Virus record (IMG/VR): IMGVR_UViG_3300045988_115755
From: a virus
DNA length: 64,000 bases
Direction: 5' to 3' (one strand)
Shown: piece after piece, positions 8,713-64,000 of the stretch
How the letters are laid out: each line of letters opens with the position of its first letter
Position numbering within the stretch: position 1 is the first letter of the stretch
Program-made: the position numbers and the translations under genes
Notes under the pieces: generated by a model
What the model was told of the DNA's origin: nothing
Seen by the model: the letters and a program-made list of their open reading frames with translations, nothing else
Database searches by the model: none

Positions 8713-8770
8713 TACAGCCTGCCCTTGGGAAATCTTGTTTGCAATCATATATAAGAATAGAGGTGAAAAT

Positions 8771-9205
8771 ATGAAAGCAGTATATCCTGTACTATTTACA
8801 AAAACCGATGACGGAAAATATTTAATTGAGGCACCAGATTTAAATGTATTAACGGAAGGAAAAGATATGTCGGATGCTATTAAAATGGCACGAGACGCAA
8901 TGGAATTAACTTGTGTTTCTATGGAAGATAGAGAGGTGGAAATTCCTAAACCAACAAATATTACAGATATCGATATTGCGAAAAGCACATTTTTTGATGA
9001 AGGAGAAACTATTGTTTCATTGGTTGATATTGATTCAACAGAATATCGAAGAAAAATTGATACAAAATCTGTAAGAAGAAATGTTGCATTACCTAGTTGG
9101 TTAAATTATGAAGCAGAACATTCTGGAATTAATGTTTCTAAAGTGTTACAAGATGCACTTATTCAAGTATTGAATGTTACTGATAGACCAAATTATAATA
9201 AATAA
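8771..9205 (+). CDS. hicB: HicB-family antitoxin (UPF0150/RNase H-like fold N-domain)
   Basis: immediately downstream of hicA; MKAVYPVLFTKTDDGKYLIEAPDLNVLTEGKDMSDAIKMARDAM matches HicB N-terminal domain; ATG 8771 after AGAGGTG. Confidence 0.6.
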   Translation: MKAVYPVLFTKTDDGKYLIEAPDLNVLTEGKDMSDAIKMARDAMELTCVSMEDREVEIPKPTNITDIDIAKSTFFDEGETIVSLVDIDSTEYRRKIDTKSVRRNVALPSWLNYEAEHSGINVSKVLQDALIQVLNVTDRPNYNK

Positions 9206-9507: not shown

Positions 9508-9543
9508 AATACAAATTTTTACATAAGAAAGGTGGAATTGATT

Positions 9544-10896
9544 ATGAATCTAAACGAAATGGAAATCCCTTGCGATCCAATTTTGGACAAAGCAAAGAGG
9601 GATGAGTTGGTGCAGAACACAGAACTTTTAAAACAGGTTACAATCAAGCCGATCCCGTGGCTTCCTGGACGAGATTATATTACTACGGAACAGGTAGCAC
9701 GATTCTTTGATGGAGATGTTGACGAGGTTAAGAGGCTGTGTACAAAGTATCGCAAAGAGTTTTTAGACGATGGAATGGAAGTTAAGACGGTGCAGGAGAT
9801 CATTGACGGTCAGGACGCAGCAACGGAAAAACAGAAGGGAAGAATCATGGTAACGTATCCGAACGGATTAAACATCTCATTCGGTTATAAGGGTACTAAG
9901 GTGTTTACTCTTAAATGTTTAATCAGATTGTCTTTGCTGATGGAAACTTCAAAGCTTGCCGAGAGTGTGAGATATTATGTTTTTATCAACGATTATATCA
10001 CGATAGAAGAGCAGAGAGAACAAGAACAGATAGAGGCAGGCGTTAAGCTTGTTGACACAACGGAAATTTTAGGTAGACGAATTGACTTATACAGAAGTAT
10101 TGAAGATCCGTTATTTTTGGCGAAGGATGTAGCAGAATGGATTGATTATAGTAAACGTCCTGATGGAAGTTATAGAACGGATAAAATGTTACAGGCGATT
10201 GATTCAGAAGAAAAATATAAGACCAAAATCTTAACCGCTAATAATGTTAGCGGGTCAAATTTAGGTCAGATTGATTCTACTGGAAAGACCATCAATCCAT
10301 TTTGGTTCCTCACAGAAGATGGACTCTATGAAGTGTGTATGCAGTCACGTAAACCGATTGCCAAGCAGATGAAGAAGCAGATCAAAGAATACCTTAGAAA
10401 CATCCGTAAGACAGGCGGTGCAGTTGACTTTGGAAAAGAATCACAGTTTATTGAACACTATTTTCCATCATTCTCTGAAGATGTCAAGCTTGCAATGGTA
10501 ACGGATCTGCGAACACAAAACAAAGAACTCAAAGAAGAGAATCAGAAATTGCAGAATGATAATAAGCTATTAGCAGCGAAAATTTTAACGTGGGATGATC
10601 GAAACAAGATGAACGCTGGGATTAGAAAGTTGGCTGCGGTTACAGGAACACAATTCTCTGTTATGTGGAACGAGCTTTATAAGAACTTGCAATATAAATA
10701 TCAGATTGATGTTAAAAAACGTGGAAAGAAACCATTTCTACAGTGGATTCAAGAACATGAATGGGATAAGGTACTGAAAGTTTTTTGTGCAATGTGTGAA
10801 GCTAGAAACCTATCTCCAACAGATATGTTCCAACAGACAGCACCAGTGGAAAATTTATATGATAATGAAGATGAGGATGATGAAGTATGGAATTAG
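9544..10896 (+). CDS. putative phage DNA-binding/antirepressor-like protein with C-terminal coiled coil
   Basis: 450 aa; N-terminal ITTEQVARFFDGDVDEVKRL resembles Rha/ORF6-type phage regulatory domains; coiled-coil NKELKEENQKLQNDNKLL; function uncertain. Confidence 0.35.
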   Translation: MNLNEMEIPCDPILDKAKRDELVQNTELLKQVTIKPIPWLPGRDYITTEQVARFFDGDVDEVKRLCTKYRKEFLDDGMEVKTVQEIIDGQDAATEKQKGRIMVTYPNGLNISFGYKGTKVFTLKCLIRLSLLMETSKLAESVRYYVFINDYITIEEQREQEQIEAGVKLVDTTEILGRRIDLYRSIEDPLFLAKDVAEWIDYSKRPDGSYRTDKMLQAIDSEEKYKTKILTANNVSGSNLGQIDSTGKTINPFWFLTEDGLYEVCMQSRKPIAKQMKKQIKEYLRNIRKTGGAVDFGKESQFIEHYFPSFSEDVKLAMVTDLRTQNKELKEENQKLQNDNKLLAAKILTWDDRNKMNAGIRKLAAVTGTQFSVMWNELYKNLQYKYQIDVKKRGKKPFLQWIQEHEWDKVLKVFCAMCEARNLSPTDMFQQTAPVENLYDNEDEDDEVWN

Positions 10897-11460: not shown

Positions 11461-12552
11461 ATGAACCTACAGTTAGTTAAAACGGAAAATTTTAATGATT
11501 TATCGTGTGATTTTTATAGTGCTGAGGATGATATTTGGATGACAAGAAATCAAATTGGAGAAGCACTGGAATATGCAGATCCAAGAAAAGCAATTCAAAA
11601 TATTCACGATAAGAACAAGGCTCGGTTTATTGGAAAATCAAGTGTCCTCAAAACGAGGACGGTTGATGGAAGGAATAGGGAAACAGTTGTATATAATGAG
11701 TTGGGAGTATTTGAAATATGTAGATTAAGTCGTCAGCCAAAAGCAGATGCCTTTATGGACTGGGCATGGAATGTTATCAAAGCTTATCGTCATGGAAATT
11801 TAAGAACAGGAACTCCTGTAACGACAGTAGAGCAATTTCTTACAGAACAGACAGAACTTATGAGGCAGATGGAAAGAAACAATGAACGCCTATACAATGT
11901 TACTATCAAAGGTTTCAATCAATTAGCAGACATTGTGAAAGAGATGAAAGCCGAACGGAAAGAATTGTATAAGCAGATTGGCAAACCTACGAAAGATATT
12001 CCAGTCGTAGATACTGAAAGTGTTATTGCAGAATACAAACTCAATGAATGGAAATCCAATGTCTATTCTATTATTGATGATATTCTCAAAGAATCTGACG
12101 AACTAGGAACAACTACTAGAGATATTCTTAAAGAAGTGTACAGGTATCTCACTAACACATATGGAATTGTGTGGGAGCAGGATCGGAAAGAATACAAGGA
12201 GAAATATAATATTAGCGAAAGAGGTAATGTACCAACGATTGATCTTTGCTATGACAAATATCCTGATCTGTTAGTCAATTCATTGGAAAAACTTTTGCGA
12301 CAGTTCAGGAAAGAAAATGCACAGCCTGATTGGGAAGAAATGAAGATCAAGATTACCAATTATGCTAATCATATTGGAAATAAATCTAAAGGCGGAACTT
12401 CTGTTTATCGGAAAATCTATACTAAGATGACAGAAAACGGTGTTAATTGGGACGAGTATGCTCATGGAGTGCCTAAATCTCAACTTATTAAAACTAATGC
12501 AATTTTATATAACAGATTTTATGAAGCTGCTGTGGAAATTATTAGTGAATAA
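11461..12552 (+). CDS. Bro-N domain protein (phage antirepressor family)
   Basis: N-terminal FYSAEDDIWMTRNQIGEALEYADPRKAIQNIHDKNKARF matches Bro-N/KilA-N-like consensus. Confidence 0.65.
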   Translation: MNLQLVKTENFNDLSCDFYSAEDDIWMTRNQIGEALEYADPRKAIQNIHDKNKARFIGKSSVLKTRTVDGRNRETVVYNELGVFEICRLSRQPKADAFMDWAWNVIKAYRHGNLRTGTPVTTVEQFLTEQTELMRQMERNNERLYNVTIKGFNQLADIVKEMKAERKELYKQIGKPTKDIPVVDTESVIAEYKLNEWKSNVYSIIDDILKESDELGTTTRDILKEVYRYLTNTYGIVWEQDRKEYKEKYNISERGNVPTIDLCYDKYPDLLVNSLEKLLRQFRKENAQPDWEEMKIKITNYANHIGNKSKGGTSVYRKIYTKMTENGVNWDEYAHGVPKSQLIKTNAILYNRFYEAAVEIISE

Positions 12553-16978: not shown

Positions 16979-17081
16979 GTCTAAATTTAGAGAATAGGAG
17001 TGAGAATTATGGAATTAATCGAGGTAGAAATTAAACCAGAAGTACGTGAACAGTGTAACAACTAAGAGAGGTGAGATTATC

Positions 17082-18032
17082 ATGGCAGCAATACAGTTTG
17101 AAGTTATTGAAACAGTAAATAATAATAACGCAGAAGAATCTGAAACAAAGATTAAAAGACGCAAGGACGGAAATCCTAAATGGACTCGATCTAACAAACA
17201 AAAAGGCGTATCATCTTTAGTGTATCCGATCAAGGACAGAAAACAATTTGCAGCCTTTAATGCATATTTTAGAGACCAGATTGATAAATCGTACACAGAG
17301 TACAAACGATATGTAGCTGCCAGAAACAATCTTTTGGTTACAGTTGGAAACAATACAGCATATCGTATCTCTGATATTGTTAGACTCAAATGGGGCGATT
17401 TATTGGAAGATAAGACTCGTAAGCAGGAAAAGAAAACAAAGAAATTTAGAACTGTATACTTTAACGACTTAGTAACCGAAGCAGTGGATATTTTCTTTGA
17501 AGCTGTCGCAGGAACTAAATATGATGTCAAGATTGATGGCGAAGTGCCAATGGATGATTATGTTTTCGGAACATGTAAATCTGGATCAGGACACATGACA
17601 GAAGCAAATGCTTTAGACTTTGTTAAAAAAGGTGCTAAAGCAGTTGGAATTGAGGATAACATTGGTACACATACACTACGAAAGAACTTTGTGTATTGGA
17701 CACTTGTTGATCATAAAGATGATCAGAACGTATTGTATACACTTATGAGATTATTGAATCATAGTAGCCCTGCAATGACGTTTTTATATGCTACAATTAC
17801 AGAGGAGGAAACTCATGTATTGTTTGACGATATCGCTCAGACATACAAGGATATTATCAGCGGAGCATTTAATGGACTGAGGGAAAATGTTATTAACGTG
17901 AGCTATGATAGAGTAATGGAGATTATCAAGTGTGCTTATGATACAGGGAAAGATGATGCAGATAAAGATAATGGAGTGCATGAGGATAATATGCAAGCAT
18001 TAAAAGAATTACTGGAAGGAGTTATTGTATGA
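17082..18032 (+). CDS. tyrosine recombinase / phage integrase family
   Basis: RISDIVRLKWGDL (Arg I), HTLRKNF (H-x-x-R), LLNHSS...FLYA (catalytic Tyr region); ATG 17082 after AGAGAGGTGAG. Confidence 0.65.
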   Translation: MAAIQFEVIETVNNNNAEESETKIKRRKDGNPKWTRSNKQKGVSSLVYPIKDRKQFAAFNAYFRDQIDKSYTEYKRYVAARNNLLVTVGNNTAYRISDIVRLKWGDLLEDKTRKQEKKTKKFRTVYFNDLVTEAVDIFFEAVAGTKYDVKIDGEVPMDDYVFGTCKSGSGHMTEANALDFVKKGAKAVGIEDNIGTHTLRKNFVYWTLVDHKDDQNVLYTLMRLLNHSSPAMTFLYATITEEETHVLFDDIAQTYKDIISGAFNGLRENVINVSYDRVMEIIKCAYDTGKDDADKDNGVHEDNMQALKELLEGVIV

Positions 18033-18592: not shown

Positions 18593-19090
18593 ATGGAAAT
18601 GAAAATGCAACTGAGGGAAGTTGAGGTACATGAAATGAACGGATATACTAATAAAAAAGAAAATGGAAAGAGATACGACAAAGATGAAAAGAAACAATAT
18701 GAATATGGGAAATATATGAAGCCGCATGTGTGGGAAATATATTTTGCCGATCTACCTGAAGTAGAAGATAGTCATATATTGTGTGGGTTACGACCAGTGA
18801 TTGTATTTTCAAATGATATATGCAATAGTACGAGTACGGAAATCAATGTTTATCCTCTAACTAAAAGGATAAGAAATTGGATTCCTACACATGTTACTAT
18901 ATGCAAAAATAAAGTAAATGGTCTTAAAAGAAACTCTCAAGTGTATTGTGAGCAAGGACGAACAATTCCAAAACGGAATTTGTTAGAATACTGGGGACAA
19001 GTAACCAACTTATCTCTTCAATTAAAAATTGCACATGCCATTATGATACAGAATGGTATGTTGTCATATATGAATGTGGCAGCGTCATAG
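18593..19090 (+). CDS. MazF/PemK-family toxin-like protein with N-terminal extension
   Basis: IYFADLPEVEDSHILCGLRPVIVFSNDICNSTSTEINVYPLTKRIRNWIPTHVTI...RTIPKRNLLEYWGQV fits MazF/PemK core; alternative start ATG 18635 after GAGGT. Confidence 0.55.
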   Translation: MEMKMQLREVEVHEMNGYTNKKENGKRYDKDEKKQYEYGKYMKPHVWEIYFADLPEVEDSHILCGLRPVIVFSNDICNSTSTEINVYPLTKRIRNWIPTHVTICKNKVNGLKRNSQVYCEQGRTIPKRNLLEYWGQVTNLSLQLKIAHAIMIQNGMLSYMNVAAS

Positions 19091-21446: not shown

Positions 21447-22271
21447 ATGACAGAAGAAAAGGATATTGTAAATGAAGGATTAAATACATTAGTATTTAGC
21501 AATGATAAATTTGGGAATATCCGCACAGCGGTCTTAGATAATAATCCGTGGTTTGCTGGCAAAGATGTTGCTGAATGTTTAGAGTACAAAAATACAAAAG
21601 ACGCTCTTGCAAGACATGTAGATGCCGAAGACAAACAATTAATCCTAAGGTCGCAAATCACGACCTTAGAAAATGTACCAAACAGAGGACTCACATTTAT
21701 TAATGAGTCAGGACTTTATGCATTAATCTTTGGAAGTAAGCTTGATAAGGCAAAAGAATTCAAGCATTGGGTAACATCAGAAGTTCTTCCGCAGATTCGT
21801 AAGACGGGCGGATATATTCCAATTGAAAAAGATGATGATGATTTAACTATCATGGCGAAAGCATTGAATATTATGCAAAACACTTTGGAGCAAAAGGATG
21901 AACTATTAGCCCAGAAAGAAGAAGTTATCAGTAAACAGAAGCCACTTGTTGATTTTGCTAATACGGTCAGTGCCACACCAACAATGGTTGATATGAAAAC
22001 AATGGCAAAGCTTCTTGAGAAAGAAAATCAAGATATTCATATGGGCAGAAACAAATTATTTGCGTGGTTAAGAAAAGAAGGGTATCTCATGTCAGATAAT
22101 ACCCCATATGAAAGATATGTTAAGCAGGGCATTTTCAAATTAACAGAAAGTGAGGTTGAAACTAAGAATGGAAACAAGTTGATTACCAAAACATATGTGA
22201 CTGGCAAAGGGCAATTATACTTGGCAAAGAAATTAGCACAATACTTTGCCTCACAGAGTGCATCAGCTTAG
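21447..22271 (+). CDS. Bro-N + KilAC/ANT antirepressor
   Basis: N-terminal FGNIRTAVLDNNPWFAGKDVAECLEYKNTKDALARHV (Bro-N), C-terminal antirepressor-like segment. Confidence 0.65.
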   Translation: MTEEKDIVNEGLNTLVFSNDKFGNIRTAVLDNNPWFAGKDVAECLEYKNTKDALARHVDAEDKQLILRSQITTLENVPNRGLTFINESGLYALIFGSKLDKAKEFKHWVTSEVLPQIRKTGGYIPIEKDDDDLTIMAKALNIMQNTLEQKDELLAQKEEVISKQKPLVDFANTVSATPTMVDMKTMAKLLEKENQDIHMGRNKLFAWLRKEGYLMSDNTPYERYVKQGIFKLTESEVETKNGNKLITKTYVTGKGQLYLAKKLAQYFASQSASA

Positions 22272-26684: not shown

Positions 26685-27287
26685 ATGGACGTTAATAAAT
26701 TATTGGTTGTCGTCGATATGCAGAATGATTTTATCGACGGAAGCCTTGGAACCAAAGAAGCACAGGAAATTGTTCCCAAAGTAATTGAGAAAATTAAAAA
26801 TTTTGATGGCATTATTGTTGCAACAATGGACACACACGATGAAAATTATTTATCTACACAGGAAGGAAAGAATCTTCCAGTAAAGCATTGCATCTGCGGA
26901 GAAGATGGATGGCATTTAAATGAAGAAGTTAGAAAGGCATTATTATCGTCAGAGATGTTTTGTCGCAATGACAAGCAAGAAAATGCTATTTGGCTTCTTG
27001 AGAACTATTGTAAAGAAACATTTGGGTCATTAGAACTTATGGACGATTGTTCTGATGAATTCGGTGAAGATGGTCGGTCTCATCCAGAAGATGTTGAAAT
27101 TACCTTAATTGGTCTTTGTACAGATATTTGTGTAATCTCAAATGCAATGTTGCTAAAAGCAACGTTGCCAGAGGCAAAGATTCTTGTAGATGCATCTTGT
27201 TGTGCGGGTGTGACACCAGAAAGTCATAAGAACGCACTTGAAGCAATGAAGATGTGCCAGATTGAAGTAATTAATGAGGAGGATTAA
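26685..27287 (+). CDS. isochorismatase-family cysteine hydrolase, nicotinamidase (PncA)-like
   Basis: VVDMQNDF (catalytic Asp), conserved Lys region, LIGLCTDICV (nucleophilic Cys); first gene of NAD operon. Confidence 0.55.
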   Translation: MDVNKLLVVVDMQNDFIDGSLGTKEAQEIVPKVIEKIKNFDGIIVATMDTHDENYLSTQEGKNLPVKHCICGEDGWHLNEEVRKALLSSEMFCRNDKQENAIWLLENYCKETFGSLELMDDCSDEFGEDGRSHPEDVEITLIGLCTDICVISNAMLLKATLPEAKILVDASCCAGVTPESHKNALEAMKMCQIEVINEED

Positions 27288-27290
27288 TGA

Positions 27291-28133
27291 ATGATTATTG
27301 TAAATGGAATTGAGATTAAGCCACAGAAATTTCCAGATGGTACGCAGAAAATTGATGTCTCTGAACCAGTTTATGGTTTCTTATTTGATGAAAAATATAA
27401 ATTTTTCTGTCTTGGATGGTTATATGAGTCTGACGAAGAGTTATTTGATATATATTGTATTTCAAGAACATTAAAAGAAAGATGCCCAAGTACACCACAA
27501 GAATTAGAAATGCCATATATTCCAAATGCCAGGTTCGATCGTGTTAAGAGTAAAGGTGAGTGTTTTACTTTAAAATATTTTTCAGAGATTATTAATAGTC
27601 TAGGATTTGCCAAAGTGGTAGTTCAAGATCCACATTCACATGTTTCTACAGCATTGTTGAATAATGTGGAAGTCAAGAATGTTGACAATGAAATATTCGT
27701 GGCTATAAATTCTATTGAAGCAGAAGAACAGGATAAAAATTTAGTCATCTATTTCCCAGACAGTGGGGCTTTAAAACGATATTCAGATCAGGTTCAGTCA
27801 TATTATTATCCGATTGTCTATGGAATTAAAAATCGTGATTGGAAGACAGGGGAAATTCTTGGTATTGAGATTCATGGAGATACAGAGAAATTAGATGAGA
27901 ATACAGCAATTTTAATGATTGATGATATTTGTAGTAAGGGTGGCACATTTTACTACGGATCAAAAGAATTAAACAAATACGGTTGTAAAGATATGTATTT
28001 GTACGTTACTCACTGTGAAAACACAATTCTTGATGGCGAATTACTAAAGGAAGATAGTTTGTTTAAAAAAGTATTTACAACACGTAGTATTTTTACGAAA
28101 GAACATGAGAAAGTTGAGGTGTTAGGTTTATGA
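27291..28133 (+). CDS. Prs-like pyrophosphokinase (PRPP synthetase family; candidate ADP-ribose pyrophosphokinase Adps)
   Basis: FPDGTQKIDVSEPV, MPYIPNARFDR, VVVQDPHS, IYFPDSGALKRY, AILMIDDICSKGGT parallel the Prs motifs FSDGE / ARQDR / VDLHA / PDAGGVKRA / DDMIDTGGT. Confidence 0.65.
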   Translation: MIIVNGIEIKPQKFPDGTQKIDVSEPVYGFLFDEKYKFFCLGWLYESDEELFDIYCISRTLKERCPSTPQELEMPYIPNARFDRVKSKGECFTLKYFSEIINSLGFAKVVVQDPHSHVSTALLNNVEVKNVDNEIFVAINSIEAEEQDKNLVIYFPDSGALKRYSDQVQSYYYPIVYGIKNRDWKTGEILGIEIHGDTEKLDENTAILMIDDICSKGGTFYYGSKELNKYGCKDMYLYVTHCENTILDGELLKEDSLFKKVFTTRSIFTKEHEKVEVLGL

Positions 28134-29599
28134 AACAGACAAATCCAATGTTATTAATTGATTTTTATAAAGCAGTTCATGCTGAAATGTTACCAAAAGG
28201 TATTACAAAATCTGTTTCTTATTTTACTCCACGTATGAGCAGAGTAAAACGATGGAATGAAGTAGCCATGTTTGGATTACAAGGATTCATTAAAGAGTAT
28301 TTGGTCGATTATTTTAATGAGTATTTTTTCTTTGAATATAGAAACAAAGCAATTGGTACTTATAAGACAGTAATGGATGCAGCTCTTGGAGAAGGTACAT
28401 ATGGATTACAGAAAATCGAAGATTTATATGATCTTGGCTATCTTCCAATTGAGATTAAGGCTCTTCCTGAAGGAACTTTAGTACCAATGCATGTGCCGAT
28501 GTTTAGTATTGAGAATACACATAAAGATTTTGCATGGTTACCACAGGCATTAGAAAGCTTAATTTCCGCAGAAATGTGGCATCCGATGATCGCCGCAACT
28601 GTTGGACATACATACAGACAGATTGTTAATAAGTTCTATGAAATGACTTGTGATGACGATATTCTAAAATCTAAAGCATTAGGGGCTTTCGATTTTCGTG
28701 GCGAAGAATGTTTACAGTCTGCGGTTAAAGCAGGGGCAGGATGGTGTTTATCATTCTTAAATACTGCAACAGTTCCAACAATTCCGTATTTAGAGAGAAA
28801 TTATAACTGTGATTGCACGAAAGAGCCAGTTGCTTTTGGTAGTCCGTCTACTGAGCATTCGGTTATGTGTAGTAATTATGCGATTGACGGAGATGAAGAG
28901 ACACTGATTAAAAGATTGCTAACAGAGATTTACCCAAATACAAGCTTCTCCGCAGTGTTAGATTCTTATGATTATTGGAATGTTGTAGAGAATATTCTTC
29001 CAAAACTCAAGAATGAGATCATGAATCACAATGGATGTTTTCTTGTAAGAGGGGATTCAGGAGATTGTGTAGATGTAGTAACCAGAACAGTATTCAAGTT
29101 ATGGGAAAAGTTTGGCGGAATTACGAATAGTAAAGGATATAAAGTATTAGATCCTCATGTAAAAGCAATTTATGGAGACTCAATTACAGTGCAGAGATGT
29201 GAGCAGATTTATGACATCTTAGAGAAGAATGGATTCGCAGCAAACAATGTCGCACTTGGCGTAGGATCATTCTCATTCCAGTGTATCGAAGAAGATGGAG
29301 TTTTGAAGCCATTTACAAGAGACACATTCAGTAGCTGTATCAAAGCAACGTATTGTGAGATTGATGATAAACCATATCCAATTTTTAAGAATCCGAAAGA
29401 TGGTGGATTTAAGAAATCTCAGAGAGGTTTATGTCATGTCTATAAAGAATCAGACGGTAAATTGACATTTAAAGATGGATATACTTCAGAAAATCTTCCA
29501 ATGAATAATCTGCTTGAGACAGTATTTAGAGATGGCAAATTGGTAAAAGAACAGTCATTACAGGAAATTAGAAGAGTTTTAAACGAAGGAGAATTTTAA
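28130..29599 (+). CDS. nicotinamide phosphoribosyltransferase family (NAMPT/NadV-like; candidate Namat)
   Basis: 489 aa, N-terminal LLIDFYKAVH (variant of NAMPT DSYK motif); ATGA overlap with Prs-like gene. Confidence 0.75.
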   Translation: MKQTNPMLLIDFYKAVHAEMLPKGITKSVSYFTPRMSRVKRWNEVAMFGLQGFIKEYLVDYFNEYFFFEYRNKAIGTYKTVMDAALGEGTYGLQKIEDLYDLGYLPIEIKALPEGTLVPMHVPMFSIENTHKDFAWLPQALESLISAEMWHPMIAATVGHTYRQIVNKFYEMTCDDDILKSKALGAFDFRGEECLQSAVKAGAGWCLSFLNTATVPTIPYLERNYNCDCTKEPVAFGSPSTEHSVMCSNYAIDGDEETLIKRLLTEIYPNTSFSAVLDSYDYWNVVENILPKLKNEIMNHNGCFLVRGDSGDCVDVVTRTVFKLWEKFGGITNSKGYKVLDPHVKAIYGDSITVQRCEQIYDILEKNGFAANNVALGVGSFSFQCIEEDGVLKPFTRDTFSSCIKATYCEIDDKPYPIFKNPKDGGFKKSQRGLCHVYKESDGKLTFKDGYTSENLPMNNLLETVFRDGKLVKEQSLQEIRRVLNEGEF

Positions 29600-30111
29600 T
29601 GATTAAAATTATTGAAGGCGATTTGTTTGATACAAATGCGAAATTTATTTGTCATCAAGTAAATTGTGCAGGAAAAATGGGATCTGGGGTAGCGTTACAG
29701 GTACGACAAAAATATCCGCATGTATATAAAGAATATGAAAAAGTTGCTTCGGAAGATATGTTAGGGGAAGTACAGATCATACCAGTGAATTCAAAATTTA
29801 TCGGACATGAACCAGGAGATATTTGGTGTGGTATGAAAGTAAAAGGGTTCAGGGAAACACAATGGATTTGTAATTTATTTGCTCAAAAGAGTTATGGATA
29901 TGACGGCAAGCAGTATACTTCAAATGAAGCTTTGAGACAGTGCTTAAAAAAACTTGCAGGAATGGTGCATGAGAAAAACAATAACTTTGGACAAACAATC
30001 GCTATGCCATATAAAATTGGATGTTGTCGTGGAGGATCTGATTGGAGCGATGTTGCCAATATTATCGAAGAAGAATTTAAAGATTGTAATGTAGAATTAT
30101 GGAGGTTATAA
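29599..30111 (+). CDS. macro domain protein (ADP-ribose binding/processing)
   Basis: MIKIIEGDLFDTNAKFICHQVNCAGKMGSGVALQV matches macro domain N-terminal signature; TAATG overlap with upstream gene. Confidence 0.65.
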   Translation: MIKIIEGDLFDTNAKFICHQVNCAGKMGSGVALQVRQKYPHVYKEYEKVASEDMLGEVQIIPVNSKFIGHEPGDIWCGMKVKGFRETQWICNLFAQKSYGYDGKQYTSNEALRQCLKKLAGMVHEKNNNFGQTIAMPYKIGCCRGGSDWSDVANIIEEEFKDCNVELWRL

Positions 30112-30114
30112 AAC

Positions 30115-30885
30115 ATGAGTTTTAATGCAGCAGAAACCAAAGACAGATTAGTGCAGTGGATCAGAGATTGGTTTGAAATTAATGGTAAAGGATGTAATGC
30201 CATTGTAGGAATTTCAGGAGGCAAGGATTCATCAGTGGTTGCAGCCTTATGTGTAGAAGCACTTGGTAAGGATCGAGTAATTGGAATTATGATGCCACAG
30301 GGTGTGCAGAGTGATATTGAGTATTCTCAGATGCTATGTGATCATCTAGGAATTGAACATTACACAGTTAATATTTTTAATGCTTGCAGAGATATTAAAC
30401 ATGAAATCAGAGATGAATTAGGTGGTAAATGGAGTAAACAAAGTGCCACAAATTTACCTGCTCGTATCCGTATGGTTACATTATATGCTTTTGCACAGAG
30501 TATGAATGGAAGGGTCAGTTGTAATTGCAATTTATCCGAAGATTGGGTTGGATATGCGACTTATGGCGGAGATGGATTTGGATCATTTGCTCCACTTGCC
30601 GATCTGACTGTGACAGAAGTTAAAGCAATTGGTAAAGTTCTGGGACTTCCAACAGAGTTAATCGAAAAAACTCCTACTGATGGGTTATGTGGCAAGACAG
30701 ATGAAGATAATCTTGGATTTACATACGAAGTGTTGGATGAATATATCAGAACAGGTGAATGCAAGGATAAAGTAGTGAGACAGATCATTGATGAAATGCA
30801 TGAGAAGAATGTATTTAAACTTGCTCCAATGCCTAAATTTATATCTGGCATGTGGATCGAGGCAGGAATGGAGTTGGATGATTAA
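30115..30885 (+). CDS. nadE: NH3-dependent NAD+ synthetase
   Basis: PP-loop SGGKDSSVVAAL, about 256 aa. Confidence 0.75.
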   Translation: MSFNAAETKDRLVQWIRDWFEINGKGCNAIVGISGGKDSSVVAALCVEALGKDRVIGIMMPQGVQSDIEYSQMLCDHLGIEHYTVNIFNACRDIKHEIRDELGGKWSKQSATNLPARIRMVTLYAFAQSMNGRVSCNCNLSEDWVGYATYGGDGFGSFAPLADLTVTEVKAIGKVLGLPTELIEKTPTDGLCGKTDEDNLGFTYEVLDEYIRTGECKDKVVRQIIDEMHEKNVFKLAPMPKFISGMWIEAGMELDD

Positions 30886-30887
30886 AT

Positions 30888-31220
30888 ATGGAAGTTAAAG
30901 CAAAATGGACAGGTCGTGGTTTTGCACTCTGTATTGGAGAATGGAAGCTTTATGTTGATGGCAAAGATGTTACCGATAAGATTCCAGAAGACTTACGCAC
31001 AGAACCTATGAATACATATAAGAAATATGAGAGATGGTATTTTAAGGATGGGGTTGAAGAATGGGAGTCATATTATGACGGACTGAAACAAGATGAATGG
31101 ATTGAGTCTAATAAATATTGGTTAGATGAAATTACAACAGATATTGATGTTCAGCGCCAGATTTTCAAGGCAATCAACGAAGAGGATTTTCGCACTAATT
31201 CTTGTGGCGGATGTATCTAA
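30888..31220 (+). CDS. hypothetical protein
   Basis: 110-aa ORF. Confidence 0.45.
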   Translation: MEVKAKWTGRGFALCIGEWKLYVDGKDVTDKIPEDLRTEPMNTYKKYERWYFKDGVEEWESYYDGLKQDEWIESNKYWLDEITTDIDVQRQIFKAINEEDFRTNSCGGCI

Positions 31221-31279: not shown

Positions 31280-32740
31280 ATGATTGAAGTAATTGGAACA
31301 GTGGTACCAGTGGTTGCTGCGGTAGGTGGTTTGGGAGCTATTATCGGTAGCGGTTATGTCAAAGCAAGTCCAGATAAAGCTTATATTATTTCTGGACTTA
31401 GAAAGACACCTAAGACATTAATTGGTAAGGCAGGGTTAAAAATCCCATTCTTTGAAAAAGCAGATCATCTTAATCTTGAGTTAATTCCAATTGATGTTAA
31501 GACATCAAGTTCTGTGCCTACAGCAGATTATATCAATATCAATGTAGATGCAGCGGTCAATGTAAAGGTTAGCAGTAATCCAGAAAGATTAAAACTTGCA
31601 GCAGAAAACTTTTTAAATAAGCCAGTAGGCAATATTGGACAGGTTGCAAGAGAAGTTCTTGAAGGTAATATGCGAGAGATCGTTGGAAAGATGAGTCTCG
31701 AAGAAATGGTTTCTGATCGTCAGAAATTTGCACAGCTTGTTACAGAAAATGCGAAGCCAGATCTTGCTGCAATGGGATTAGATATTATTAGTTTTAATGT
31801 TCAGAATTTTATGGATGATAATGATGTTATTGAAAATCTTGGTGTAGATAATGTTGTTAAAATCAAGAAGAAGGCTGCGATTTCCAGAGCTGAAAGCGAA
31901 AGAGATATTGAAAAAGCAAAAGCAATGGCTGAAAAAGAAGCAAATGATGCAAAGGTAGAGTCAGCAACAGCGATTGCAGAAAAGAATAACAATCTGGAGA
32001 TTAAAAAATCTGAGCTTGAAAAGATTTCAAAAGCAAAGAAAGCTGAGGCAGATGCAGCATACAAGATTCAGGAAGAAAAATCACGTAAAGAAATTGAAGT
32101 TGTAACTGCGGATGCTAATATTATGCGTCAGGAAAAGGAAATTGAACTGAAACGAAAAGACGTTGAGGTAACAGAGCAGACATTAGATGCACAGATCAAG
32201 AAGCAGGCAGAGGCTGAAAGATATGCTTCACAGCAGAAAGCAGATGCAGACTTATACAAGAAACAGAAAGAATCTGAAGCTAACAAATATGCCAAAGAAA
32301 AAGAAGCTGAATCTACAAAATATGCTATGGAGCAGGAAGCTGAAGGTATTCGTGCAAAGGGTGTAGCAGAAGCCGAAGCAATCAAAGCTAAAGGTATTGC
32401 TGAAGCAGAAGCAATCGAAAAGAAAGCAGAAGCTATGAAACAGATGGGTAAAGCATCTATTGTAGAAATGATGTGTCAGATGTTCCCAGAAGCAGTTAAA
32501 AATGCAGCCGCACCATTAGGAAATGTAGGAAGTATCACTATGTATGGAGAAGGAAACACAACAAAATTAACAAAAGATATTATGAATGTTGTGAATCAGG
32601 TATCAGATGGTGTTAAAGGATCTACAGGTGTTGATCTTGCAAAGATGTTAAAAGATTTTGTTTCTGGAGATAACGAAGTAGAATCTACAGATAATGAAAA
32701 TCTTGGAACGCCAGAGCCAGCAGATTACCGTGAGTTCTAA
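31280..32740 (+). CDS. flotillin-like SPFH/band-7 domain protein
   Basis: N-terminal TM helix then SPFH core with long Ala/Glu/Lys-rich coiled-coil flotillin-type repeat. Confidence 0.65.
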   Translation: MIEVIGTVVPVVAAVGGLGAIIGSGYVKASPDKAYIISGLRKTPKTLIGKAGLKIPFFEKADHLNLELIPIDVKTSSSVPTADYININVDAAVNVKVSSNPERLKLAAENFLNKPVGNIGQVAREVLEGNMREIVGKMSLEEMVSDRQKFAQLVTENAKPDLAAMGLDIISFNVQNFMDDNDVIENLGVDNVVKIKKKAAISRAESERDIEKAKAMAEKEANDAKVESATAIAEKNNNLEIKKSELEKISKAKKAEADAAYKIQEEKSRKEIEVVTADANIMRQEKEIELKRKDVEVTEQTLDAQIKKQAEAERYASQQKADADLYKKQKESEANKYAKEKEAESTKYAMEQEAEGIRAKGVAEAEAIKAKGIAEAEAIEKKAEAMKQMGKASIVEMMCQMFPEAVKNAAAPLGNVGSITMYGEGNTTKLTKDIMNVVNQVSDGVKGSTGVDLAKMLKDFVSGDNEVESTDNENLGTPEPADYREF

Positions 32741-40583: not shown

Positions 40584-41369
40584 ATGTCAAGGAAAAATAC
40601 AAGAGAAATTGAACTTGCTTTTAGTAAACACAGAGATCCAGATTGGGAAGCCGATGTTGAAATTTATGGTAAAAGAGTTTTAAAAACAGTTCGTGGTATT
40701 TGTCTTGGAGATGAATGGACGGAAATTGATTCATTGAAAAATAAAGATTGGATTGAGTTGTCAGATATGTTTGGTAATTTTGACAATCATAATCCCTATT
40801 TCAATCATAACCCACAATATGTTTTATTGGATAAATTCTCTATAACATCTCCTGCGATATTGTGTAGCAATGAAATAGTTATGAAAAATGGCAAAGTTTT
40901 GAGTGTTGATAATATATCAGCAAATCTATCAGGCGAAAATGAGGTATACAAGATTTATTCAAATACGAAATATGATGATTATACATATTATGATGAATCA
41001 AAAAATTTAGTATTTGAATTAGCATCAAAAGATGTTGATAAGATAATCCGATTTATGAGAGATTTTATGGATGTATTGCGTGACAGTAAGTTAACAAAGT
41101 ATAGAAATAGTAGTTTTTTATGGAGACTATTTAACACTCTTGATATGCCATATTTTAAACAAACATATTCCATGAATGATTTGAAAAAATATACAAACAC
41201 ATTTAGATCCGAGGTTTGTGGTCAACTAAAAGAAACTATTCCTAATTTTAAATATACTGGAGTTCCAATGGGCGGGTATATTGAAAGATATTTTGAATTA
41301 AGCTATGTAGAGGAAGTACAAAAATTCATTAAAGAACAGGAGGATAAAAAATGTGAAGAAATTAAATGA
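40584..41369 (+). CDS. hypothetical protein
   Basis: 261-aa ORF. Confidence 0.5.
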   Translation: MSRKNTREIELAFSKHRDPDWEADVEIYGKRVLKTVRGICLGDEWTEIDSLKNKDWIELSDMFGNFDNHNPYFNHNPQYVLLDKFSITSPAILCSNEIVMKNGKVLSVDNISANLSGENEVYKIYSNTKYDDYTYYDESKNLVFELASKDVDKIIRFMRDFMDVLRDSKLTKYRNSSFLWRLFNTLDMPYFKQTYSMNDLKKYTNTFRSEVCGQLKETIPNFKYTGVPMGGYIERYFELSYVEEVQKFIKEQEDKKCEEIK

Positions 41370-41886
41370 TGAACAGCGAAAGCTGATTGAAGATAATTAT
41401 TCTTTAATTTGGCATTTACATGAAAAATATTTTACAAAGTTTACAGATTTTGATACATATATGGATCTTGGTCGTATGGCAATTTGTAAAGCAGCATTAA
41501 AATGGGACGAGTCTAAAGGAACTTTTGGTACATATCTCTTTTGGGTATTACGTTCAGAAGTGAATCAATATTATACAAAATGGCACAGACCAACAGAAAA
41601 AATGAATAGGAATGCTGAATCGTTAGATACGCCATTGGCAGGATATGAACCAGAAGATGATATTACAATCGGAACAACACTGATGAGTGGGGATAACGTA
41701 GAAGATGAGGTACTTACAAAGGTACATTTTCAAAATGAGTTTGATAAATTGGCACCGAGAAATAAAAAGATTATTGTTTTAAAACAGAAAGGTTTAACAC
41801 AAAGACAAATTGCAAATCAACTTGGAATCACTCATCAGTGGGTTAGTCAAAATATTGTACAGTTTAAGAAAGCATTATGTGGTTAA
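41353..41886 (+). CDS. phage sigma factor (sigma-70 family, regions 2 and 4), copy 1
   Basis: NDEQRKLIEDNYSLIWHL...FGTYLFWVLRSEV (region 2) and LTQRQIANQLGITHQWVSQ (region 4 HTH). Confidence 0.65.
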   Translation: MKKLNDEQRKLIEDNYSLIWHLHEKYFTKFTDFDTYMDLGRMAICKAALKWDESKGTFGTYLFWVLRSEVNQYYTKWHRPTEKMNRNAESLDTPLAGYEPEDDITIGTTLMSGDNVEDEVLTKVHFQNEFDKLAPRNKKIIVLKQKGLTQRQIANQLGITHQWVSQNIVQFKKALCG

Positions 41887-41899
41887 GAGAGGTGAGACC

Positions 41900-42733
41900 A
41901 TGACAATTGAAGAAGTAAAGGATTACATAAACTCGTCTACAGAGTATGACTTTTTGCGAGATTATCCGCACAAAATCGCTTTTCTCACGTTAGGTGGAAG
42001 TTATGCCTACGGAACAAATACAGAGGATTCGGACATTGATTTACGTGGTGTTTTCCTTAGTGATAAAAGAGAGATTTTGTTGAATAATAATCAGAACAAT
42101 CTTGAGAAGACCGATGATCATAAAGACATTGATACCGTGTTACATTCTCATATTAAGATGATTAATATGCTTGCCAAGGGCAATCCTACATTTTTAGAGT
42201 TGCTATATTTTGCACCAGACCGCTATTTGTATGTATCCGATATTGGTATGGAGTTGATCAAAAATAGAGATATGTTCTTATCTAAGAGAGTTTATCATGC
42301 ATATAAAGGATATATTTGTGATTGCCTGACTCGAACGAGTTTTAAGTATTATAAAAATAAAGATTCAGAGAAAGAAAGGCAAAAGGCAGAACGATACGCT
42401 AATAAATCAATGATGCATGCAGTTCGATTATTGTTACAGGGCATTGAATTATTACATAACGGAACAATGTTAGGATCTATGGACGACATAGGAAAAGATC
42501 TTGTAAAGATCAAAGAAGGATACAATAGTACGCATAAAACATATAGATTTGGCAAACACAATGAGCATACAGAATATTTACCAAATCAGTCATACGATGT
42601 TTTTATTGAAGGATTACTTTATCAATTTGATTATGATTATATGAATACTGATTTGCCAGACGAACCAGACTGGGATCGTATCAATAACTTCTTGATGACA
42701 ACAAATGAACGAATTGTGAGAGGAATGGTGTAA
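41900..42733 (+). CDS. Pol-beta superfamily nucleotidyltransferase
   Basis: GGSYAYGTNTEDSDIDLRGVF NTase motif; ATG 41900 after AGAGGTGAG. Confidence 0.55.
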   Translation: MTIEEVKDYINSSTEYDFLRDYPHKIAFLTLGGSYAYGTNTEDSDIDLRGVFLSDKREILLNNNQNNLEKTDDHKDIDTVLHSHIKMINMLAKGNPTFLELLYFAPDRYLYVSDIGMELIKNRDMFLSKRVYHAYKGYICDCLTRTSFKYYKNKDSEKERQKAERYANKSMMHAVRLLLQGIELLHNGTMLGSMDDIGKDLVKIKEGYNSTHKTYRFGKHNEHTEYLPNQSYDVFIEGLLYQFDYDYMNTDLPDEPDWDRINNFLMTTNERIVRGMV

Positions 42734-62614: not shown

Positions 62615-64000
62615 ATGAAAACTGAATATGTGAAAGAAATGAATGTCTTGATCGACAGAATCAATGATGCTTCATATGCGTACTACGCAGAGGATAATCC
62701 GATCATTTCAGATAAAGAATTTGACGATTTATGCACTGCTTTAGAACGACTTGAGAGAGATTCTGGCGTTGTTTTAAATAATTCGCCCATCCACCACGTT
62801 CAAGGATTTGTAATTGATTCTCTGGCTAAAGTAAAGCATACACGCCCAATGTTATCAGCTCAGAAGACAAAAGATGTCAATGAGGTCAAAAAATTTCTTG
62901 CGGATAAAATTGGTGTTTTATCGTGGAAGGAAGATGGTTTGACGGTGGTACTAAGGTACGAAAAAGGACGCTTAAAACAAGCAATTACAAGGGGAAATGG
63001 CGAAATTGGAGAAGATGTGACTCATACAGCACGTATGATTTTCAATTTACCTCTTGAGATTCCTGATAAGCGAAGTATTGAGGTACGTGGCGAATCAGTT
63101 ATCAGTTATGAAAACTTCCAGAAAATCAATGAAGCGTCGCATGGTAAATACAAGAGCGCAAGAAATCTGGCAGCAGGCACAATTAGACAGTTAGATGCGA
63201 ATGTAGCAAAGAAAAGAAAACTTGCTTACAAGGCATTTGAGTTAGTCAAAATTGATGGCGTATCTGATGAAGAAATGCCAAGCATTGCTGATAGTTTTAA
63301 ATATCTTGCAGAGCAGGGATTTGACGTTGTAGAACATCAGATTATTGATCGAAATAATGTTGAAGAATATATTGAGAAATTTGATCCAGAAGAATATGAA
63401 TATCCTGTTGATGGTCTGATTTTCACTTATAACGACTATCAGTATGGTAAATCTCTTGGGGCAACGAGTAAATTTCCCTTAAATATGCTTGCGATGAAAT
63501 GGTCTGATGACCTCTACGAAACAATAATCAGAGATATTGAATGGAATACATCTCGTACAGGGTTGATTAATCCAGTTGCAGTATTCGATCCAGTTGATCT
63601 TGATGGCGCAGAAACTACAAGAGCTACATTACATAACGTAAGTTACATTGAGGGATTAGAACTTGGTGTAGGTGATACGATTCAGGTTTATCGTAGTAAT
63701 ATGGTAATACCAAAAGTACACGATAATCTGACAAGAAGTAATACATTCAAGATTCCAGATACTTGTCCAACCTGCGGTGGCGAAGCAAAAATCATCAACG
63801 AGAATGACAGTAAGGTTCTGAAATGTATGAATCCTGACTGCAAGGCAAAGCTATTAAGCAAGTTTTTGAACTTTGTTTCCAGAGATGCAATGAATATTCA
63901 AGGTTTATCTGAGGCAACACTGAAAAGATTTATTGATCTTGGATGGCTGAAAGATTATACAGATATTTATAATTTAGCAGAGCATAAATCTGAGATGAAG
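62615..64000 (+). CDS. ligA: NAD-dependent DNA ligase (3'-truncated by window end)
   Basis: N-terminal Ia domain YAYYAEDNPIISDKEFDDL, adenylation KxDG (SWKEDGLTV), Zn-finger CPTCGG...C..C. Confidence 0.8.
   Translation, partial: MKTEYVKEMNVLIDRINDASYAYYAEDNPIISDKEFDDLCTALERLERDSGVVLNNSPIHHVQGFVIDSLAKVKHTRPMLSAQKTKDVNEVKKFLADKIGVLSWKEDGLTVVLRYEKGRLKQAITRGNGEIGEDVTHTARMIFNLPLEIPDKRSIEVRGESVISYENFQKINEASHGKYKSARNLAAGTIRQLDANVAKKRKLAYKAFELVKIDGVSDEEMPSIADSFKYLAEQGFDVVEHQIIDRNNVEEYIEKFDPEEYEYPVDGLIFTYNDYQYGKSLGATSKFPLNMLAMKWSDDLYETIIRDIEWNTSRTGLINPVAVFDPVDLDGAETTRATLHNVSYIEGLELGVGDTIQVYRSNMVIPKVHDNLTRSNTFKIPDTCPTCGGEAKIINENDSKVLKCMNPDCKAKLLSKFLNFVSRDAMNIQGLSEATLKRFIDLGWLKDYTDIYNLAEHKSEMK

Follow-up and report, generated by a model that had tools for sequence, protein, structure and literature searches.

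A phage operon that may rebuild NAD+ through nicotinate: a candidate deamidated derivative of NARP1

Five consecutive genes for nicotinamide adenine dinucleotide (NAD+) metabolism occupy positions 26685-30885 of a viral sequence, IMG/VR record IMGVR_UViG_3300045988_115755. The whole stretch that was analysed is 64,000 nucleotides (nt) long and is referred to as the window. NAD+ depletion is among the commonest antiphage strategies of bacteria, and the commonest phage answer to it is NARP1, a published NAD+ reconstitution pathway consisting of the enzymes Adps and Namat (Osterman et al., bioRxiv 10.1101/2024.02.11.579819; structures in PMC12774641 and PMC13586617). Within the Adps clade, 97% of members have a Namat homologue immediately beside them. 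The operon in the window holds relatives of both enzymes together with three further genes, and is considered here as a candidate deamidated (nicotinate-based) derivative of NARP1. Its genes, and two features within the Namat-like gene, are as follows (protein lengths in amino acids, aa).

26685-27287, plus strand: PncA-like nicotinamidase gene, 200 aa
27291-28133, plus strand: Adps homologue gene (Prs superfamily), 280 aa
28130-29599, plus strand: Namat-clade transferase gene with a remodelled pyridine pocket, 489 aa
28682-28849, plus strand: pocket substitutions G185, N211, A213 and S240 within the Namat-like gene (H187, G213, D215 and A242 in SPbetaL1 Namat)
29282-29311, plus strand: ten-residue insertion CIEEDGVLKP, Namat residues 385-394, in the selectivity clamp helix motif
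29599-30111, plus strand: macro-domain (Adpp-like) gene, 170 aa
30115-30885, plus strand: NadE gene, NH3-type, 256 aa

The genes are tightly packed. A 3-nt spacer separates the PncA and Adps genes, with a GAGGAGG Shine-Dalgarno sequence located within the 3′ end of the PncA gene. The Adps and Namat genes overlap by 4 nt (ATGA) and the Namat and macro genes by 1 nt (TAATG), while a second 3-nt spacer lies between macro and NadE. An earlier note, drawn up from the letters of the window, had described five plus-strand open reading frames (ORFs) at these coordinates with these junctions; both were borne out, as were its five family assignments in profile searches. Since the same set of genes is found together in more than 200 related loci, the operon arrangement is not due to chance.

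The transferase encoded by the third gene was assigned to the NAMPT family through PF04095, PF18127 and phrog_448. It also scores above the cut-off of NCBIfam NF006629, whose name (“nicotinate phosphoribosyltransferase”) is a historical one for a NadV-like family. The solved SPbetaL1 Namat (9w5x/9w5w, an identity confirmed at 100%) is matched at an E-value of 2e-113, versus ~2e-50 for human NAMPT. When a neighbour-joining tree of 60 taxa was rooted on bacterial homologues lacking Adps, the window enzyme fell inside the Adps-linked Namat radiation. The E-values and the tree thus support the proposal that the NAMPT-like gene encodes a Namat rather than a canonical NAMPT. A solved “nicotinamide phosphoribosyltransferase” (9ke8/9keo) is also matched far better than human NAMPT, at 2e-90; it possesses a canonical pocket and the clamp helix GAQTYQRNTRD.

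The catalytic core of Namat is conserved in the window enzyme and in both clades described below, and comprises Asp13, Tyr15, Phe189, Arg192, His245 (the catalytic histidine, H243 in the window enzyme), Arg306, Asp308, Gly360-Asp361, Gly390-Ser391, Arg399 and Asp400. With the exception of position 245, these are contacts on the ribose, phosphate and catalytic side of the active site, and all 12 are identical in the two clades. One neighbouring position differs. Ser190 of SPbetaL1 Namat, which contacts the phosphate of nicotinamide mononucleotide (NMN), is Asp in the window type (D188, positions 28691-28693); other variant lineages carry Ser or Gly there. An acidic side chain so close to a phosphate comes as a surprise, and D188 may act via a metal.

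The base-recognition side of the pocket is another matter. A total of 264 loci was assembled from relatives of the window enzyme in IMG/VR and the species genomes of GTDB, relatives of SPbetaL1 Namat and of the Phass-1-type and K/S/S-type enzymes, and reference phages, and their six-frame ORFs were searched with hidden Markov models (HMMs) built from the proteins of the module. Some contigs were present twice, such that the 208 variant loci represent 182 distinct Namat sequences. When 49 non-redundant variant sequences were compared column by column with 31 canonical Namat sequences, 20 of 485 positions conserved in canonical Namat were found to be replaced in the variant clade, including 187, 213, 215 and 242. 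Through the numbering offsets between published residue lists, these four correspond to H191, G217, D219 and A244 of human NAMPT.

The functions reported for these residues point to the pyridine base. In SPbetaL1 Namat, Asp215 hydrogen-bonds the amide of nicotinamide, and D215A cuts NAD+ output ~8-fold (PMC12774641). According to reviews citing Khan et al. 2006, Asp219 sets the substrate specificity of NAMPT, with D219S switching it and D219A abolishing activity; reviews also describe H191R, G217R and A244M of NAMPT as blocking a tunnel that adjoins the nicotinamide site. In all 208 variant loci position 215 is Ala or Ser and position 242 is Ser, whereas the Asp is kept in all 39 canonical loci.

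The variants fall into three deep lineages according to residues 187/213/215/242: G/N/A/S (the window type), S or A/K/S/S, and G/R/A/S (the Phass-1 type, whose Namat shares 32% identity with the window enzyme). One lineage therefore has Ser at 215, as in the published D219S switch. Across the lineages residue 213 is N, K, R or, rarely, L; Asn, Lys and Arg can each donate a hydrogen bond or carry a positive charge, which is what a neighbouring carboxylate would call for. Since the 12 ribose, phosphate and catalytic contacts are identical while positions 187, 213, 215 and 242 are replaced, the chemistry of Namat appears to have been kept and its base-recognition side rebuilt. The earlier note had Namat adding nicotinamide, as in NARP1. 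That assignment is not supported for the window enzyme, which lacks the nicotinamide-recognising Asp, has a remodelled base pocket, and belongs to a group that co-occurs with PncA and NadE.

The extent of this co-occurrence was determined in loci with at least 4 kb on either side of the transferase (n = 192), divided by the residues at positions 215/242.

Variant pocket (Ala or Ser / Ser), 165 loci: Adps in 165, PncA in 162, NadE in 162, PncA and NadE together in 160, macro in 74
Canonical pocket (Asp or Glu / Ala), 27 loci: Adps in 27, PncA in 0, NadE in 0, PncA and NadE together in 0, macro in 4

The linkage to PncA and NadE holds down to 32% Namat identity (Phass-1) and through several rearrangements of gene order. 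The usual order is PncA-Adps-Namat-(macro)-NadE, with rearranged forms such as Adps-Namat-macro-NadE-PncA. The five genes had been presented as one module; they do occur together, but the conserved core is made up of four (PncA, Adps, the Namat variant and NadE), with macro as an accessory in 74 of 165 loci. A passing hint that the module might cover “deamidated routes” proved to be the key point.

All variants group into a single clade (89% bootstrap) that branches from within canonical Namat, which rules out multiple independent origins of the pocket change. Because all variants share this clade, the association with PncA and NadE arose once. Three outgroup homologues from Desulfotomaculaceae and Pelotomaculum metagenome-assembled genomes (MAGs; loci L180-L182) have a canonical H/G/D/A pocket; Adps, PncA and NadE were not found near them, and they are probably ordinary NadV-type enzymes. 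At the other extreme are the closest relatives of the window (L003-L031), in which Namat is 97-98% identical to that of the window. Here, Adps identity is ~70% in most loci and 98-100% in L015, L023 and L031, and PncA identity ranges from 63 to 100%. Such sharply differing alleles beside a near-identical Namat gene suggest recombination or allele swapping inside the operon.

A further difference concerns the selectivity clamp of Namat. This consists of an SCL stacking residue, Arg40, and an SCH motif, GSX-phi-X-phi-X-phi-TRD, with aromatics at positions 3 and 7 (PMC12774641). In the window enzyme, the helix reads GSFSFQ-CIEEDGVLKP-FTRD, compared with GSFTYQYNTRD in canonical Namat. R38 (equivalent to R40), G379-S380-F381 (F381 being equivalent to F392) and T396-R397-D398 are kept, and the position-7 aromatic (Tyr396) is replaced through the insertion. 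It might be that F395, directly before TRD, stands in for it. The insertion is found in the window-type and K/S/S lineages and is absent from the Phass type, whose clamp helix, GAYTYQYVTRD, has the canonical length alongside an A/S pocket.

The second gene encodes a protein of the Prs superfamily that matches phrog_619 and scores 90 bits with TIGR01251, under the cut-off of 113. It shares 40% identity (E 4e-42) with the Adps of the Bacillus phage SPbetaL1, which has been characterised biochemically, versus E 6e-12 for the best solved cellular Prs. The determinants of Adps are known from the ICP1 enzyme, and include adenine contacts at Phe18′, Arg87 and Phe92, His121, Asp161, the catalytic Lys185, and Asp212-Asp213-Ile214 followed by a remodelled PP loop with an aromatic cap; the C-terminal helices alpha11-alpha12 of Prs are missing (PMC13586617).

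This signature was mapped via the SPbetaL1 and Vibrio 184E37.3a enzymes in an alignment of 72 variant-type Adps, 29 canonical Adps, and two Prs fragments (B. subtilis and S. solfataricus). The residues found in the window protein are F14, R81/R84, F92, H115, D157, K180, D211-D212-I213 and F220. Of the aromatics, the F92 position is Phe in 21 of 29 canonical Adps and F220 is Phe in 29 of 29; both Prs fragments have Ile at each. At 280 aa, the protein has the length of an Adps, and the C-terminal helices of Prs are absent. Motifs of phosphoribosyl pyrophosphate (PRPP) synthetase, such as DDICSKGGT at residues 211-219, had been cited in the earlier note; they are indeed present, but are common to Prs and Adps and hence do not discriminate between the two. 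Placement of the protein in the Adps clade, the difference in E-values and the aromatic residues all support its proposed identity as an Adps rather than a cellular Prs.

The enzymes at the two ends of the operon belong to the deamidated arm of NAD+ metabolism. The first gene product matches the isochorismatase family (PF00857, E 2e-18), and its closest solved structure is the nicotinamidase of P. horikoshii (1ilw, E 4e-13). A catalytic triad of D11, K110 and C145 is present, with D11 and C145 aligning to D10 and C133 of 1ilw, and the metal ligands D49, H51 and H68 align to D52, H54 and H71. Triad and ligands are invariant or nearly so across 67 distinct family members. The Asp-x-His...His metal site, the feature that distinguishes nicotinamidases within the isochorismatase family, is thus kept. 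With the nicotinamidase equivalog NF008623, the protein scores 30.9 bits versus a cut-off of 174, and by these features it is a divergent member of the nicotinamidases. Besides C145, four cysteines (C69, C149, C173 and C191) are each kept by 97% or more of the 67 members. Compared with PncA of P. horikoshii, the window protein carries an inserted stretch of ~50 residues (roughly 85-135). The last gene product scores 170.7 bits with TIGR00552 (cut-off 63.65) and matches PF02540 at E 3e-51. It has the P-loop SGGKDS at residue 34 and a single domain without a glutaminase domain, which identifies it by sequence as an NH3-dependent NAD synthetase.

The fourth gene product carries a macro domain (PF01661, 28.3 bits; cut-off 22) and matches phrog_335 “phosphatase” (E 4e-40). 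A full-length alignment (E 2e-24) links it to a macro protein of Vibrio phage 184E37.3a that is encoded between Adps and Namat. Poa1p (6lfu) is matched at E 1e-4, and the macro domains of DarG score better (E 2e-9). Identity with the DarG/DarT system was considered and rejected, as NF048014 gave 75 bits versus a cut-off of 250 and matched no more than model positions 1-142 of 338, and as nothing resembling DarT was seen among the neighbouring genes.

Such a gene is not new to NARP1, although the earlier note had regarded the macro extension as undescribed. In NARP1-AP, Adpp dephosphorylates the ADP-ribose (ADPR)-1″-phosphate made by aRES NAD+ phosphorylases and thereby supplies ADPR to NARP1; it occurs in 15% of NARP1 phages (bioRxiv 10.64898/2026.01.28.702374). 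The same source describes the order Adps-macro-Namat for the NARP1-AP of Vibrio phage Gary, and defines NARP1-AP by a PF01661, PF14519 or PF20016 domain encoded no more than two genes away from a NARP1 operon. The window gene, directly 3′ of Namat, fits this definition. Its PF01661 domain and its Vibrio 184E37.3a homologue fit a role in clean-up of ADPR-1″-phosphate, in line with the ADP-ribose clean-up function that had been suggested, and a DNA or protein de-ADP-ribosylase activity is possible as well. A RyR-domain glycosidase is another published accessory of NARP1.

The macro gene behaves as a swappable accessory. It is present in 45% of variant and 15% of canonical well-flanked loci, the latter figure equalling the published 15%. 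Most phages with a transferase 98% identical to that of the window lack it, and in other loci its slot holds unrelated small genes. For example, a 251-aa protein with a DFDDT motif (L032:7482-8240) fills the gap between Namat and NadE in 16 loci, most of them devoid of macro; it resembles a HAD phosphatase by eye, has no Pfam match, and may be an alternative phosphatase for ADPR derivatives. Other genes found inside variant modules encode a YspA-type SLOG domain (PF10686, L122:9400-9822), a nucleoside 2-deoxyribosyltransferase-like protein (PF15891, L051:7428-7868), a FolD-like NAD(P)-binding protein (PF02882, L109:8861-9670) and a 144-aa protein without a Pfam match (L173:9361-9813). At the macro position of Phass-1 is a gene for a 139-aa protein (L001:8555-8974) with neither a Pfam nor a macro-HMM match. 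A conserved 120-aa ORF without a Pfam match is located between PncA and Adps in 14 loci (L032:4841-5212 and 13 others). The slot next to the transferase takes different accessory genes, macro/Adpp among others, that could convert ADPR derivatives to ADPR.

Taken together, the operon is best read as a deamidated derivative of NARP1, a reading to which a probability of roughly 60% is attached. Following cleavage of NAD+ into ADPR and nicotinamide by a host NADase, PncA would convert nicotinamide to nicotinate and NH3. Adps would use ATP to convert ADPR to ADP-ribose pyrophosphate (ADPR-PP) and AMP, and the Namat variant would join nicotinate to ADPR-PP to give nicotinic acid adenine dinucleotide (NaAD) and pyrophosphate. 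Finally, NadE would form NAD+ from NaAD, ATP and NH3, with PncA freeing one ammonia per nicotinamide. Where the host employs a RES-type NAD+ phosphorylase, the macro protein could act as an optional feeder by converting the ADPR-1″-phosphate product to ADPR. In this scheme a nicotinate-using transferase is the economical choice, because PncA yields nicotinate, NadE consumes the nicotinate dinucleotide, and only Adps and an Asp-less Namat stand between them.

Somewhat better than even odds are given to a broader proposal: that a widespread clade of gut phages runs this four-enzyme “ADP-ribose Preiss-Handler” route, in which a Namat derivative makes NaAD from nicotinate and ADPR-PP after a switch of base by D215A/S, A242S, G213N/K/R and H187G/S/A. 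Several advantages of such a route can be envisaged. Charged nicotinate would be retained in the cell, while nicotinamide diffuses away. Gut bacteria deamidate nicotinamide rapidly, such that nicotinate is perhaps the available pool. Lastly, the ATP-driven NadE step would pull the pathway forward.

A number of points weigh against the nicotinate reading. Base specificity is deduced from sequence. The divergent sites include 2 of the 7 listed nicotinamide contacts, a modest enrichment (Fisher p = 0.03). All variants descend from one ancestor, so the covariation amounts to one maintained evolutionary event as opposed to many independent ones. Because the clamp-helix insertion removes the Tyr396 equivalent, a preference for ADPR-PP over PRPP is not assured. 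The window is 64 kb of a ~160-kb genome, the remainder of which could encode NMNAT or NadD, and the host would be expected to supply PncB and NadD. Finally, the longer route costs one extra ATP, for an uncertain selective advantage.

Among the other explanations, the one that survives best, itself unlikely, is a canonical NARP1-AP operon with two independent helpers. Namat would still convert nicotinamide to NAD+, while PncA and NadE would boost the Preiss-Handler pathway of the host by way of host PncB and NadD. Both of these enzymes are expected in Clostridia, the kinship of Adps and Namat is strong, and NadE occurs alone in other phages (for example, cyanophages and pelagiphages), so it is able to act as a stand-alone auxiliary gene. 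On the other hand, PncA and Namat would compete for the same nicotinamide, and D215A and D219A damage the use of nicotinamide. Independent helpers also leave unexplained why the Asp is replaced in 208/208 variant versus 0/39 canonical loci, and why PncA and NadE never accompany the canonical pocket. Because remodelling of the pocket co-occurs strictly with PncA and NadE, a single nicotinate pathway is the better account than canonical NARP1 plus extras.

It is rather improbable that the operon is instead a PRPP-based analogue of the Preiss-Handler pathway. Here, the Prs-like enzyme would make PRPP, the NAMPT-like enzyme would make nicotinic acid mononucleotide (NaMN), and host NadD and phage NadE would follow; alternatively, NadE would act on NaMN as an NMN synthetase. 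The clamp-helix insertion and the NF006629 match, its historical name aside, are compatible with such a scheme, and the solved Namat keeps PRPP activity in vitro (PMC12774641). Even so, the Prs-like protein falls in the Adps clade, with aromatic adenine contacts and a lid and without the Prs C-terminus, and SPbetaL1 Adps gave no product in a published assay meant to test Prs activity. The transferase retains R38, F381 and T-R-D, and single mutations in the clamp have mild effects in SPbetaL1 Namat (PMC12774641). The Phass-type lineage shows the same linkage to PncA and NadE with a clamp helix of canonical length. Moreover, PncB, NadD and NMNAT were not found in the 49 window ORFs scanned. A third idea, very improbable, is that the pocket is adapted to another pyridine base or analogue, or is relaxed in specificity, and that the module yields something other than NaAD. 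The identity of the base cannot be read from sequence alone, and residue 213 varies. Against this, nicotinate and NaAD are precisely what the two invariant partners, the metal-dependent nicotinamidase and the NAD synthetase, bracket.

The surroundings of the operon are those of a phage replication and early-gene region, with ORFs of at least 110 aa located almost entirely on the plus strand. The window encodes a beta-clamp, Bro-N/ANT proteins, a primase-like protein, RecJ, RecD2, a sigma factor and LigA. GC skew is positive in all 2-kb bins of 1-64000, and GC content ranges from 29 to 37%. An NAD-dependent ligase had been predicted from position 62615 onwards. This is borne out by the adenylation, OB, Ia and zinc-finger domains of LigA, and the gene (62615-64000) continues past the window end. 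No tRNA genes were found in a scan of the window, which is therefore without sign of the stop-codon recoding of the Phass-1 type. Between 23000 and 34500, a scan for promoters and terminators returned 42 and 5 candidates, respectively, not above the 45.4 and 3.9 expected from shuffled sequence, and the boundary of the transcription unit is for that reason not defined.

Immediately downstream of the operon is one further ORF, for which membership in the module is uncertain.

30888-31220, plus strand: ORF of 110 aa, phrog_20678 (unknown function)

It begins 2 nt past NadE and shows a weak, sub-threshold match to the TscA antitoxin. Since it is kept only in the closest relatives (L003-L031), it lies outside the conserved core. 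Just 3′ of the module is a gene for a 486-aa SPFH/Band-7 flotillin-like protein (31280-32740). Elsewhere in the early region, proteins with a HicB-like antitoxin domain (8735-9205) and a PemK/MazF-like toxin domain (18593-19090) are encoded at non-adjacent positions. Three Bro-N domain proteins, one with KilAC/ANT, are found at 9532-10896, 11461-12552 and 21447-22271, and a phage-integrase-family protein at 17046-18032. Further on, a sigma-70-like factor (41353-41886) is followed by an RlaP-family nucleotidyltransferase with an RNA-repair-associated pol-beta fold (41810-42733), and the two ORFs overlap.

With respect to distribution, megablast of the 4.2-kb region against INPHARED returned only a 65-bp match and hence no close cultured relative. 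The closest contigs in IMG/VR are 140-170 kb long. In GTDB, homologous modules occur mostly in MAGs of Lachnospiraceae and other Clostridia from human and ruminant guts, and a few cultured isolates have the module too, among them Filifactor villosus CCUG 46385, Bacterium 0.1xD8-71 and Lachnospiraceae bacterium IMSAGC_011. The human-gut phage Phass-1 also carries it, with the genes annotated as nicotinamidase, ribose-phosphate pyrophosphokinase, nicotinamide phosphoribosyltransferase, hypothetical and hypothetical; the module is not discussed in the Phass-1 paper. A search for nicotinate, PncA, NadE or NaAD in connection with NARP1, Namat or ADPR-PP yielded no prior description in the searchable literature, which covered few subscription-journal papers. 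Novelty appears to lie in the PncA and NadE pair, which comes with the remodelled Namat pocket, in the nicotinate route and in the predicted NaAD-forming reaction; the counter-defence logic and the macro extension are already known.

If the nicotinate reading is true, it would entail a new enzymatic reaction, the direct synthesis of NaAD from ADPR-PP, and a natural specificity switch in the NAMPT/Namat fold involving three or four residues that are easily mutagenised. Phages would be rebuilding NAD+ from the nicotinate pool, an option suited to hosts or environments with rapid loss or deamidation of nicotinamide, and counter-defence would have been rebuilt on the deamidated NAD arm across an entire clade of gut phages with links to the Clostridia, Lachnospiraceae included. 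A rule for annotation would also follow, whereby the deamidated type is recognised by Ala or Ser at 215 together with Ser at 242 in a Namat homologue that is accompanied by PncA and NadE. Current tools would call such loci plain NARP1 or “Prs, NAMPT, NadE”.

Several known systems invite comparison. NARP2 (NadV and NMNAT, Vibrio phage KVP40) and NARP3 (PnuC and NadR, PMC13464706) are, like the operon in the window, phage-encoded routes for restoring NAD+. Membership in NARP2 was rejected, as the transferase belongs to the Adps-linked Namat clade and no NMNAT or cytidylyltransferase-like domain was present in the 49 ORFs scanned, which span 64 kb of the genome. NARP3 was likewise rejected, since PnuC and NadR are unrelated; neither of these was found in the same ORFs.

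The resemblance to NARP1-AP is closer. In both, a macro gene lies within a NARP1-type operon and is an accessory in a minority of operons; that of the window is homologous over its full length to the macro gene of Vibrio 184E37.3a. The window gene differs in that it follows Namat rather than separating Adps from Namat, and in that it occupies a variable slot; the macro protein used for the comparison was that of 184E37.3a.

With NARP1 itself, the operon shares adjacent and translationally coupled Adps and Namat genes, the acceptor and catalytic residues of Adps, the core of Namat, the SCL arginine and Phe392. It departs from NARP1 in the pocket, where Asp215 has become Ala (Ser in one lineage), Ala242 Ser, Gly213 Asn, Lys or Arg, and His187 Gly, Ser or Ala, and in the clamp helix, where two of three lineages have the 10-residue insertion. 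It also differs in its partners, PncA and NadE, which occur in no canonical NARP1 locus sampled, and in its predicted product, NaAD instead of NAD+.

The remaining comparison is with the Preiss-Handler pathway (PncA, PncB, NadD and NadE). The first and last enzymes, PncA and an NH3-dependent NadE, are the same, as is the overall logic of deamidating the base, building an acid dinucleotide, and re-amidating it. In the middle, the PRPP-dependent PncB and the adenylyltransferase NadD would be replaced by Adps and a Namat-derived transferase, such that the phage would reuse ADP-ribose in place of PRPP and ATP.

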